In this document: one piece after another, positions 37,437-42,654 of the stretch
Layout: every line of letters starts with the position of its first letter
Numbering within the stretch: position 1 is the stretch's first letter
Assembly: GCF_003334385.1 (NCBI RefSeq)
Contig: NZ_QOWN01000011.1
Source of the DNA: Escherichia coli
GTDB taxonomy: Bacteria; Pseudomonadota; Gammaproteobacteria; Enterobacterales; Enterobacteriaceae
DNA: 64,000 nt
Strand: one strand, 5' to 3'
Position numbers and translations under genes: made by a program
Notes under the pieces: generated by a model
What the model saw: only the letters and a program-made list of their open reading frames with translations
The model's database searches: none
What the model was told of the DNA's origin: nothing

Positions 37437-38810
37437 TTACTGGTTTTCAGCCAGCTGACGATCGTGGCGGCGTTTAAACATCCAGCCAATCAACAGCACA
37501 ACAATCCACGCGAAACCGACATACAGCGAGATACGCGTATCCGGGTGATAACCAATCAACCCGATAATAAAGAGCAGGAAAATCAGCCCGCCGATGGTCG
37601 TTGCTACCCCACCCGGCACTTTAAATTTCAGCGCCTTAACTTCTTCTGGCGGCAAACGGCGACGGAAGGCAATTTGCGACAGCAGGATCATAATCCACAC
37701 CCACACCGTGGCGAAGGTTGCCAGCGAAGCGATCACCAGGAAGACGTTTTCCGGCATGATGTAGTTCAGATACACCGCAAACAGCAGCGCGGTAGTCATC
37801 ACCAGCACCGTAACCCACGGAATACCGCGACGCGACGTTTTGCTGAAAATTTTCGGCGCGCTGCCCTGCTCTGCCATACCGTGGAGCATACGGCCTACGC
37901 CAAATACATCACTGTTAATTGCCGACAGCGAAGCAGTCAGCACAACAAAGTTAAGAATGCTGGCGGCAAAGGTAATGCCCATATGCTGGAACGTCAGCAC
38001 GAACGGGCTACCGGCAGTGCCAACCTGATTCCACGGGTAGATAGACATAATGACGAACAGCGTACCGACGTAGAACACCAGAATACGCATCGGCACGGAG
38101 TTAATCGCACGCGGTATCGATTTCTCAGGATCTTTCGCTTCACCGGCGGTAATCCCGATAATTTCGATCCCACCGTAAGCAAACATCACCATTTGCAACG
38201 ACATTACCATGCCAAGCCAGCCGTTACTGAAGAAGCCGCCGTTGCTCCACAGGTTATGAATACCGGTCGGTTGCCCGCCGTTGCCAATCCCCCAGATGAT
38301 GATGCCGAAACCGGCGACAATCATGATGATGATGGTGGCGACTTTAAAGAACGAGAACCAGAATTCCAGCTCACCGAATACCTTCACGCTCATCAGGTTT
38401 ACGGCGCAAATGATCAGCACCACGCTCAGTACCCAAATCCAGTGCGGCACCGTCGGGAACCAGACACCCATATAGATACCAAAAGCGGTCACATCGGCGA
38501 TGGCGACAATAAGGATTTCAAAGCAGTAGGTCCAGCCGGTAATGTAACCTGCCAGCGGGCCGAGGTTTTCCTGCGCATAACGCGAGAAAGAGCTGGCGGC
38601 CGGGTTATGTACCGACATTTCCCCCAGCGCACGCATAATGATATACGCCGCGATACCACCGATAATATAGGCCAACAACACGCTCGGACCGGCCATTTTG
38701 ATGGCGTCTGCCGAACCGTAAAACAGCCCGGTGCCAATTGCTGAACCCAGTGCCATAAAGCGTATGTGGCGGGTACTTAGCCCACGCTTTAGCTTGTTCT
38801 TACTTTCCAT
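37437..38810 (-). CDS. proY: Proline-specific permease ProY (APC family)
   Basis: 457-aa 12-[38 protein letters not shown]... Confidence 0.94.
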
Positions 38811-38885
38811 CAATTCCTAACCCATCAACACAATAAAAAACCACGGGGCATCGCAGCCCCGTGGTTAAAACAAATGTTCAGTGAT

Positions 38886-40205
38886 TTAGTGAGCGCTGGA
38901 GGTCACCTGACGACCTGCCGCGCGATCCCAGATAATGGCCAGAACCACCATCACCACTGTTGGCATTAACCACGCCAGACCTTGTTCGGCCAGCGGTAAA
39001 CGCTGCGCCCAGGACGGTAAGATATCGCTGAATGCAGATGCTTTGATCCCGTCGAGAATACCAAAAAGCAGGCTGATAAACATCGGCGGAGCAATCACGC
39101 GGGACGAATTATGCCACCATGAGCGTGTAAAACTTAATACAACCAGTGCGATACACGGCGGATAAATAGCGGTCAGCACCGGTACGGAGATCTGGATCAG
39201 CTGGCTTAAGCCGAGGTTAGAAACCACCATCGAGAAGCCGCCGAGGATAAACACCAGCGTACGATAAGAGAGCGGTACGTACTGGGCAAAGAATTCTGCA
39301 CAAGCACAGGTCAGGCCAACTGCCGTTACCAGGCAGGCGATGAAGATTAACGCCGCCAGCAGGAAGCTACCGCCGCCGCCAAAGGTGTGCTGAACGTAAG
39401 CATGCAGAATAGCAGCGCCGTTTGCAGACTGATCGACCAGCGACGCGCTGTCTGACCCCAGACGGAACAGCGCCAGGTACAGCAGAGTCAGACCAACACC
39501 CGCCATCAGGCCAGCCCAGACGGTATAACGGGTCAGCAGACGCGCTTCGGTAACGCCACGAGAACGCGCCGCGTTAACAATAACGATACCAAACACCATT
39601 GCGCCCAGCGTATCCATGGTCAGATAGCCGTTAACGAAGCCGTTAGAAAACGCAGCGTTTTGATAAGCCTCAGTCGCCGTGCTGATAGAACCCGCCGGCC
39701 AGACAATAGCGGCAACAGACAGGATGACCAACGCGATAATTTTCAGCGGCGCAAGGAAGTTGCCCACGGTATCCAGCAGCTTGCCCGGATAGAGCGAAAC
39801 CAGAATAACGATAGCGAAATAGACCAGGCTGTAGATAAACAGCGGCAGCGCGGAATCACCCGTCAGCGGCGCAATCCCCACTTCAAAGGAAACGGTAGCT
39901 GTACGCGGCGTAGCGAAAAGCGGCCCCACCGCCAGGTAACAAACCGTTGCCAGCAGTACGCCAGCGACTTTACCGATTGGCGTGCTGAGGCTGTCAACAC
40001 CGCCGCCAACTTTTGCCAGCGCCACTACCGTTAATACCGGCAGGCCAACGGCAGTAATGAGGAAGCCGAATGCCGCAGTCCAGACGTGTTCGCCTGCCTG
40101 TAAGCCGACCATTGGAGGGAAAATAATGTTACCTGCGCCGACGAACAACGCAAATGTCATAAAGCCCAGAGCGATGATATCGCGCGATCTTAATTGATGG
40201 GTCAT
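38886..40205 (-). CDS. brnQ: Branched-chain amino acid transporter BrnQ
   Basis: 439-aa membrane [34 protein letters not shown]... Confidence 0.96.
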
Positions 40206-40554
40206 AAATCATACTGCCTGTGGATGTGGTGTTGTAACGTTAAATTTTTGTGCCAATCCCTGGGGATGATACAGCGGTATATTTAAACAATTTTAGCGGG
40301 AAATACTCCCAACCAGGCGCGGCGAAGAATAGTTTTTCGATTTACCGCGTTAATGCAGTCAGTATGACAGCACCTGAAGCGCAATTTAAACGCTTATAAC
40401 GTTTTAAAGCAAGGAGGGATCTAAAAACCAGAGGTATATAGCGATAAGAAATCACCAACCAGTATAAAACACTATTTCCGTGAAAAAGACATGGCTAATC
40501 ATGCGAACAAAAAATCACCAACCGTTGTAAAATCTAACGCCCGTATTTTGACTG

Positions 40555-40583
40555 CAAAGAAAATAAGCCAGCATCGACTGGCT
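40555..40583 (-). terminator. Rho-independent terminator of the phoBR operon
   Basis: Minus-strand AAGCCAGTCGATGCTGGCTT hairpin followed by ATTTTCTTT, about 30 nt after the phoR stop. Confidence 0.6.
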
Positions 40584-40611
40584 TATGGCAATAAAAGATG
40601 ACAAAGGCGGA

Positions 40612-41907
40612 TTAATCGCTGTTTTTGGCAATTAAACGTTCCGGGATAACAAAACTGAAACGTGTTCCTTTTCCTACTGTACTCTCAATATTCAGGCGAC
40701 TTTCGTGATGATTCACAGCATGTTTCACGATCGCTAACCCTAATCCGCTACCGCCGGTTTGCCGGGAACGCGCTTTATCAACGCGATAAAAACGCTCGGT
40801 CAGGCGCGGAATATGCTCCGGTGCAATGCCCGGTCCGTTATCTTCAACGCTAAATTCGGCACCGTGCGGCACTCGCTGCCAGCGTACGGTGATATGCGTG
40901 CCTTCCGGCGTATGATTCACGGCGTTATAGACCAGGTTCGAAATCGCACTGCGTAGCTGATCTTCGTTGCCAGACACCTTGAGGCCGTTATCTATCTCAA
41001 AGGTAAATGTCTGTTTTTTCTGACTCAGAGTCTGAGCCTCGCGCTCAACAACGCGCAGCATCATCGGCACATCAACCTTTTCATTGAGCAAATGCGTCGG
41101 TGCGGCTTCTATTTTCGACAGCGTCAGCAATTGCTTCACCAGTCCTTCCATCCGCTGGGTCTGCTCGCGCATGGTGTGCAACGCTTTTTCGCGTACCGCG
41201 CCTTCCAGCGGCTGCTCATTCATCATCTCCAGGTAACCCTGTAACACGGTCAATGGCGTACGTAACTCATGGCTCACGTTGGCAAAAAAGTTACGCCGCG
41301 CCCCTTCCAGTTGATGCATTTGCGTGACATCACGCGCCACCATCAGCAACTGTTTGTGGGTATAAGGCATGACGCGAATTTCCAGATGCCGCCCGGTGTT
41401 GAGCACCAGATTGAGCGGGCGAGAAAAATCACGCGTTTTCAGATATTGCGTAAACTCCGGGTAACGCAGTAGGTTAAGGATGTTCTGCCCGTTATCTTCC
41501 GGCCAGCGCAAACCAAGAATTTGTTGCGCCAGACCGTTACACCAGAAAATACCGCCCTCTTCCGTGGTCAGCACCACCGCGTCGGGCAGCGACTCCGCGC
41601 CGCTACGAAAGCGTTTAATCAGATTGCCCAGTTCACGGCGGCGTTTTTTATTTCGCAGCTGCATCTGGTGTAAGCCGTATAGTAGCGGTTCCCAGCTACC
41701 ACGCCCCGGTGGCGGGGTCATACTGCGATCCACCCACAGCCACCATGAAAGGCGCAATAAATTCCAGAAATGCCAGATAAGCAGTCCTGTTACCGATGCC
41801 AGCAAAAACCAGGGCAGGTAACCAAAAAATGCACCCAGGATGAAAGCCGGGAGGCAGCAAAGTAGCAGCTCCAGCACCAGCCTTTTCCACGACAGCCGTT
41901 CCAGCAC
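40612..41907 (-). CDS. phoR: Phosphate-sensing histidine kinase PhoR
   Basis: 431-aa ORF with H-box [13 protein letters not shown] and ATPase G-boxes (DNGPGI, GGSGLGL). Confidence 0.97.
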
Positions 41908-41964: not shown

Positions 41965-42654
41965 TTAAAAGCGGGTTGAAAAACGATATCCTGTACCGCG
42001 CACGGTCTGCACCATGCGGTCATGCCCGCCGGGCTCCAGTGCTTTACGCAGGCGACGAATGTGGACATCGACCGTGCGGTCTTCCACATACACGTTAGTT
42101 CCCCAGACGTGGTTTAACAGCTGCTCGCGGCTGTACACGCGCTCAGGATGCGTCATAAAAAAGTGCAGCAGTTTAAATTCTGTCGGCCCCATCTCCAGCG
42201 GCTCTTCGCCCGCCATCACTCGGTGAGATGTCGGGTCGAGACTTAATCCCTGCATCTCAATCACCTCTTCCACCGCCATTGGCGAAATACGGCGCATTAC
42301 CGCTTTGATTCGCGCCACCAGCTCCTTCGGCGAAAACGGCTTGGTGATATAGTCATCCGCGCCGGTTTCAAGGCCGCGCACGCGATCTTCTTCTTCCCCT
42401 CTGGCGGTCAACATCACCACTGGAATATCCCGGGTCATCGACTCGCGCTTGAGGTGTTTGATGAACTGGATACCGGAGCCGCCAGGTAACATCCAGTCAA
42501 GGAGAATTAAATCCGGCCAGGGTTCATTCAGTTGATTCACAGCACTGTCATAATCTTCCGCTTCGACCGGCTGAAAGCCATTTTGTTCGAGCACGAAGCA
42601 GACCATTTCGCGAATTGGAGCTTCATCTTCTACGACCAGAATACGTCTCGCCAT
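41965..42654 (-). CDS. phoB: Phosphate regulon response regulator PhoB
   Basis: 229-aa OmpR-family [21 protein letters not shown]... with receiver and winged-helix domains. Confidence 0.97.

Follow-up and report, generated by a model that had tools for sequence, protein, structure and literature searches.

The transporter mRNAs repressed by GcvB (dppA, oppA, cycA, sstT and Salmonella brnQ among them) carry a C/A-rich element that lies beside the ribosome-binding site and is complementary to the R1 segment of GcvB, and such an element is also found upstream of E. coli brnQ. The published list of GcvB R1 targets (PMC9299463) includes the gene, as a target that was verified in Salmonella and is conserved in E. 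coli. [quoted passage not shown] For brnQ-proY, membership of the Lrp regulon has been cited (PMC4474525). We examined the phoR-brnQ gap in one window, a stretch of 64,000 nucleotides of E. coli DNA. The gap is, with high probability, an ordinary regulatory spacer made up of the terminator of phoBR, some upstream sequence, the brnQ promoter P1 as mapped (with the minor P2) and a GcvB-targeted leader of 170 nt. This is a promoter-plus-leader region already known in its essentials. We consider it ordinary because the 12-bp direct repeat that had drawn attention to it is real but not conserved.

The gap spans 406 bp (40206-40611) between the phoR stop and the brnQ ATG, as the earlier note had stated; both genes lie on the minus strand, and the window is oriented opposite to the K-12 map. 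Its A+T content is 60%. K-12 MG1655 has a gap of identical length, likewise unannotated, and 531 bp around the gap are at least 95% identical in 5425 of 5426 complete E. coli genomes, with phoR and brnQ as the only annotation on this stretch among the matches listed. BLAST against the same 5426 genomes found the conserved core in single copy, with no paralogous site. The coordinates of all features are collected in Table 1.

Table 1. Features of the phoR-brnQ region in the window, with identity to E. coli across Enterobacteriaceae species where calculated
Feature	Position	Strand	Identity	Remarks
proY	37437-38813	minus
brnQ	38886-40205	minus
phoR	40612-41907	minus
phoB	41965-42654	minus
sbcD	from 42802	plus
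brnQ third codon positions			0.57	neutral reference
phoBR intrinsic terminator	40563..40586	minus		10-bp stem ATAAGCCAG..CTGGCTTAT, then TTTCTTT; predicted by terminator scan
Sequence between terminator and block A			0.47	poorly conserved
36-aa ORF MANHANKK... plus stop	40491..40601	plus		judged not coding
Direct repeat copy 1, 24 nt	40509..40532 (-134..-157 from P1)	minus	0.67	TTTTACAACGGTTGGTGATTTTTT in brnQ sense; 12-mer 40512-40523
Block A	40490..40514 (-115..-139 from P1)	minus		TTTTTTGTTCGCATGATTAGCCATG; conserved; start of the plus-strand ORF when reverse-complemented
Block A stretch	40514-40480		0.81
Direct repeat copy 2, 24 nt	40446..40469 (-71..-94 from P1)	minus	0.50	12-mer 40449-40460
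Direct repeat copy 2, 12-mer	40449-40460	minus	0.45
brnQ P1 promoter block	40376..40433	minus	0.86	directly upstream of the mapped start
P1 T-tract and GATC	-52..-43 from P1; GATC 40421-40418	minus
P1 -35 (putative)	40412-40407	minus		TTGCTT
P1 spacer	40404-40388	minus		position of the dyad AAACGT-TATAA-GCGTTT, which lies within the 18-nt spacer
P1 -10 (putative)	40388-40383	minus		TAAATT
P1 discriminator	40376-40382	minus		GCGCTTC; G+C-rich
P1 transcription start (A)	40375	minus		170 nt upstream of ATG; K-12 418645, two data sets
brnQ 5' leader	40206..40375	minus		170 nt, mapped P1 start to ATG
Leader +33..+63			0.80
Hairpin H2 (candidate)	40318..40349 (+27..+58)	minus		CGCGG...CCGCG; encloses conserved segment GGTAAATCGAAAAACTATTCTTCGCC
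Hairpin H3 (candidate)	40297..40311 (+65..+79)	minus		UGGGAGUAUUUCCCG; 69% of cells paired
P2 -10 (putative)	40295-40290	minus		TAAAAT; from sequence
P2 start (A)	40282	minus		77-nt leader; K-12 418738, Cappable-seq
C/A-rich box	40219..40235	minus		ACAACACCACAUCCACA; probable GcvB R1 target; nearly invariant in all species
C/A box plus Shine-Dalgarno			0.87
Shine-Dalgarno	40219-40214	minus		AGGCAG
brnQ start codon	40205-40203	minus		ATG

The cross-species comparison used 80 loci obtained by a scan with BrnQ, in genera that include Escherichia, Citrobacter, Enterobacter, Klebsiella/Raoultella, Kluyvera, Kosakonia, Buttiauxella and Cedecea. In 78 of these 80 Enterobacteriaceae loci phoR lies upstream of brnQ; the other two loci are truncated. 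With about eight exceptions among the 78, the phoR match ends roughly 410-470 bp before the brnQ ATG. Identities were calculated against E. coli over 76-77 Enterobacteriaceae species, with the third codon positions of brnQ as the neutral reference. A core of 156 nt, of which about 65 nt are promoter DNA upstream of the start site, is essentially free of indels (155-157 nt in 77 species). The P1 promoter block contains about 37 invariant columns among 52 species, and the 17-bp dyad in its spacer, AAACG(T/C)TATAAGCGTTT, is nearly invariant, as is the leader segment +30..+55.

Read in the phoR to brnQ direction, on the minus strand throughout, the first functional element would be the end of phoBR transcription. 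The earlier note had placed a phoBR terminator in the gap, and the terminator scan agrees: a hairpin starts 26 nt past the phoR stop and is followed by a T-run, as expected of an intrinsic terminator, and its stem GCCAG/CTGGC is kept in most genera. The scan returned only two other terminator-like sites, one inside brnQ and a weak one on the plus strand at the phoR stop. Between the phoR stop and the hairpin, TGTCAnnnTnnCTTTCCA (40586-40603, minus strand) is conserved across genera and loosely resembles half a Pho box (CTGTCAT). The terminator region of Escherichia sp. MOD1-EC7003 (L004:1351-2100) carries an insertion of about 745 bp, made up of approximately six tandem REP/BIME-like units (GCCTGATGCGCTACGCTTATCAGGCCTAC...GCCGGATAAGGCGTTCACGCCGCATCCGGCA), with the brnQ promoter and leader intact.

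Some 190 bp past the hairpin, sigma-70 RNA polymerase would initiate brnQ-proY at P1. The start sites were determined experimentally by others. The supplement of Kim et al. 2012 (PMC3415461) gives a single E. coli brnQ start, at NC_000913.2 position 418645 (54 reads; UTR 170 nt; upstream sequence TTTAGATCCCTCCTTGCTTTAAAACGTTATAAGCGTTTAAATTGCGCTTCA), and the K-12 plus-strand part of the Cappable-seq data (Ettwiller et al. 2016, PMC4782308) independently places a start at 418645 (score 15.3), a second at 418738 (score 12.3) and further weaker ones within brnQ. The same part of that data set holds no other brnQ-sense (K-12 plus-strand) start in 418409-418644, that is, from the phoR stop to P1. 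Kim et al. 2012 (PMC3415461) also mapped the brnQ start of Klebsiella pneumoniae (UTR 179 nt), which lies behind this promoter block too, shifted 1 nt upstream relative to E. coli. A primary 5' end thus maps directly downstream of the block in both E. coli data sets and at the orthologous Klebsiella site, as a sigma-70 promoter there would predict. The earlier note had proposed mapping the brnQ starts, and these published 5'-end maps supply them (P1 at 40375, P2 at 40282). Its suggestion of a complex brnQ promoter or leader proved right, with starts 170 and 77 nt upstream of the ATG and a C/A-rich GcvB-type site in the leader.

By consensus P1 appears weak. The putative hexamers are poor (3/6 for the -35 and 4/6 for the -10, the latter with -11A and -7T) and are set 18 nt apart, and a strict sigma-70 consensus scan of 40100-40700 found no promoter. 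Between the -10 and +1, the discriminator GCGC(C/T)(C/T)C is G+C-rich and conserved across genera, a feature that we take to be typical of promoters inhibited by ppGpp/DksA. In this respect P1 presumably resembles stringently controlled sigma-70 promoters such as rrnB P1, and its T-tract at about -50 is reminiscent of a distal UP subsite; unlike promoters of the rrnB P1 type, its hexamers and 18-nt spacer are far from consensus. P2 would act as a second, minor start in Escherichia, the only genus in which the cross-species alignment contains its -10.

Two other promoter candidates were rejected. No start maps to the conserved nATAAT motif at 40440-40435, and the best approach to a sigma-54 promoter (TGGCAC-N5-TTGCW), TGGCAC-AAAAA-TTTAA at 40255-40240, lacks the -12 GC and occurs in Escherichia only. 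The leader element at 40238-40256 (minus strand) resembles a sigma-54 -24/-12 pair with a defective -12, and no start was mapped there. A gSELEX peak of the RpoN holoenzyme has been reported in the phoR>brnQ spacer at 418832 (PMC8743547). Further downstream, Kim et al. 2012 (PMC3415461) list two proY starts, 419972 and 419920 (NC_000913.2), which correspond to 39048 and 39100 in the window (minus strand). Both lie within the 3' part of brnQ, and proY therefore need not rely only on read-through from brnQ.

The C/A-rich box at the end of the P1 leader abuts the Shine-Dalgarno sequence. The G/U-rich R1 of Hfq-dependent GcvB would pair with this box and repress translation, as shown in Salmonella; for E. 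coli we infer this pairing, like the terminator and the promoter hexamers, from sequence, conservation and the Salmonella work. The box ACAACACCACAUCCACA (given as -35..-19) has the position near the ribosome-binding site, the C/A-rich composition and the R1 complementarity of such targets. Pairing was computed with windowed R1 from the K-12 gcvB sequence. This replaced a duplexfold of full-length GcvB with the leader, which we discarded as meaningless, shuffles being equally good. The two best R1 (nt 60-87) duplexes, at -49..-25 (-22.7 kcal/mol) and -30..-6 (-20.6 kcal/mol) from the ATG, exceed those of shuffled leaders (about -17.6 +/- 2.7 kcal/mol) by only some 1.5-2 sd, which is suggestive but not decisive. 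Unlike the described GcvB targets, E. coli brnQ is paired here by computation alone, with a modest advantage over shuffles. In the published RIL-seq table the chimera count for brnQ is zero (PMC9299463), and the supplements of Adams 2021 contain no brnQ entry.

Several further details of the leader were observed. A 12-nt inverted repeat (40209-40220/40356-40367, 11/12 complementary) would allow the 5' end of the E. coli leader to pair with the Shine-Dalgarno/start region. By hand comparison with the alignment, this complementarity drops to 8-9/12 in Citrobacter and Enterobacter. Transcripts from P2 would be without the 5' arm (40356-40367). An out-of-frame ATG (40210-40212, minus strand), 7 nt upstream of the brnQ start, opens a 27-aa ORF (40129-40212) and is absent from other genera. 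In Intestinirhabdus alba (L062:2256-2440), about 180 nt are inserted into the leader of brnQ at a point between H3 and the C/A box.

The direct repeat described in the earlier note is present: two exact copies of AAATCACCAACC stand on the plus strand, at 40449-40460 and 40512-40523 (-74..-85 and -137..-148 from P1), and the similarity extends to 24 nt with 83% identity (40446-40469 and 40509-40532) at a spacing of 63 bp. When the 406 bp were shuffled 5000 times with dinucleotides preserved, 1.0% of the shuffles contained an exact direct repeat of 12 nt or longer, and the 24-nt copy-to-copy local alignment scores 28, compared with 13.7 +/- 2.3 (maximum 27) in 2000 shuffles. Since shuffles so rarely match it, the repeat exceeds chance for this single region, yet it was singled out by a reader who had scanned many regions. 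Across species the picture changes. The copy-to-copy score is 14-17 in E. albertii and other Escherichia and 12-17 in other genera, which is the background level (13.7). The 12-mer of copy 2 is conserved at or below the neutral rate, and the higher identity of copy 1 is due to its T-run, which overlaps block A. Within E. coli, copy 1 reads GATTGGTGATTT in K-12 MG1655, a mismatch of one base, and one base differs in the 36 nt around copy 1 in 1595 of 5425 E. coli genomes. Because similarity in the sister species is at background and copy 1 varies within E. coli, we regard the repeat as real but E. coli-confined and polymorphic, and as lying outside the conserved machinery. Given the neutral rate of copy 2, the loss of similarity in sister Escherichia and the K-12 mismatch, it is not the conserved regulatory feature of the gap. 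In these comparisons the repeat, situated upstream of the promoter, is a curiosity of one lineage.

Rival readings of the gap were also weighed. The two repeat copies might form an operator pair for a factor, with Lrp as the obvious candidate, that tunes brnQ to leucine in E. coli. The excess over gap shuffles speaks for this, as do the spacing, which equals six helical turns and leaves the two copies facing the same side of the helix, the reported membership of brnQ-proY in the Lrp regulon, and a match with two mismatches to the Lrp SELEX consensus (TAGTGTTTTATACTG, 40474-40460) that abuts copy 2. That consensus (YAGHAWATTWTDCTR) is uninformative here, however, since it has 83 matches in the window where 73 +/- 9 would be expected, and GGTTGGTGATTT is not Lrp-like (A/T-rich), so that brnQ in both respects differs from livJ, livKHMGF and yhjE. 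Lrp control of brnQ-proY is reported, but nothing links Lrp to the repeat. Copy 2 evolves at the neutral rate across genera, the copies in E. albertii and in three further Escherichia species are no more alike than background, and copy 1 is polymorphic within E. coli, K-12 included; we therefore consider an operator pair improbable; sites for an E. coli-specific factor are possible but unsupported. Least credible of all is a coding role for the plus-strand ORF, whether for a small protein or for a leader peptide some 12 aa long. An ORF of 37 codons is there, as the earlier note said (36 aa plus stop), with its ATG at 40491 and not at 40490. The first eight codons (MANHANKK) fall within conserved block A and the aligned start is ATG in 59 of 77 species. 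These eight codons are conserved because they are the reverse complement of block A, and nine of the 18 species that lack the ATG have no usable start codon (CCG, ACG, CCA, GCG, CCC). The stop position yields 7 to >53 aa, the residues change wholesale in Buttiauxella and Cedecea (MVVYAVKL, MVHHAVIL), and a Shine-Dalgarno is missing. Since the start codon is lost and the length varies so widely, we judge the ORF not to be coding, and the earlier note was right to discount it. Start, frame and length are not jointly preserved, six-frame tests were also negative, and in neither the conserved core nor the leader is any reading frame open in all species.

The conservation itself could be read as the mark of an RNA. 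A small RNA in the gap, either sense (from the phoR terminator to P1) or antisense to the brnQ promoter and leader, would account for deeply conserved non-coding sequence and for the conserved T-run that follows block A in the sense direction. The conserved core, however, coincides with the mapped promoter and mRNA leader. A scan with Rfam 15 (39800-41000, E<=10) gave only a spurious tmRNA fragment (8.4 bits, E=0.69), and the sense strand offers neither a start of its own in the Cappable-seq data for that strand (418409-418644) nor a suitable terminator. Block A shows no conserved hairpin in the aligned sequences and is followed by no G+C-rich terminator (it was also considered as a second terminator hairpin and rejected, the stem being lost in Kluyvera, Atlantibacter and Siccibacter in the alignment by eye). 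The stretch from the terminator to block A is poorly conserved, and the matches listed, from 5425 E. coli genomes with the core, carry no annotated feature beneath it. We found no stable fold either, and the unannotated small RNA suggested in the earlier note is thus very unlikely. More probable than a small RNA, though a shade less so than the operator pair, is a structured cis-regulatory leader (riboswitch, attenuator or protein-binding) in which H2 and its conserved loop would respond to a signal, with either the translation of brnQ or premature termination under their control. The nearly indel-free core and the invariance of +30..+55 would fit, and pair 95-123 of H2 shows a clean compensatory swap (UA in 33, CG in 9). 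Overall, 76% of cells are paired compared with 73.8% in shuffles (0/500 as high), and the covariation score is 0.130 compared with 0.112 (6/500 as high). Against this, 24% of cells are unpaired, G-U shows no bias over A-C that would fix the strand, no terminator lies past the hairpins, and the promoter share of the core is DNA. RNAalifold on the 156-nt core of 52 species found no leader structure, only the small promoter dyad (-2.5 kcal/mol overall). For single-sequence folds of both strands in 19 species the z-scores averaged around -1; that of the E. coli leader in full was -0.66. H2 and H3 are therefore weakly supported candidates for conserved helices; two further hand-built helices, H1a and H1b, were dropped because their registers are inconsistent between genera.

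The promoter-plus-leader reading that we prefer does not explain everything. In its basic form it does not account for how little the promoter spacer, block A and the leader segment vary. Because their conservation far exceeds that of a plain promoter and leader, we regard the spacer dyad, block A and leader +30..+55 as candidate regulator sites, and they are probably bound by some regulator. That all three serve one regulator of branched-chain amino-acid uptake, a protein or a small RNA, new to brnQ, common to all Enterobacteriaceae and unrelated to the repeat, is possible, though on balance we doubt it. To our knowledge, the motifs of PurR, the LacI family, ArgR, FadR, IHF, Zur and TyrR bear no convincing likeness to the conserved blocks.

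For this locus, the analysis adds both brnQ starts (P1 and P2), the leader and the probable GcvB box to the annotation, with little importance beyond it; the repeat and the ORF, although they catch the eye, are probably not its working parts. What may be of residual value is a pointer: little has been described of how enterobacteria regulate BrnQ (LIV-II), and three non-coding blocks of deep conservation lie here, upstream of and within its transcript.
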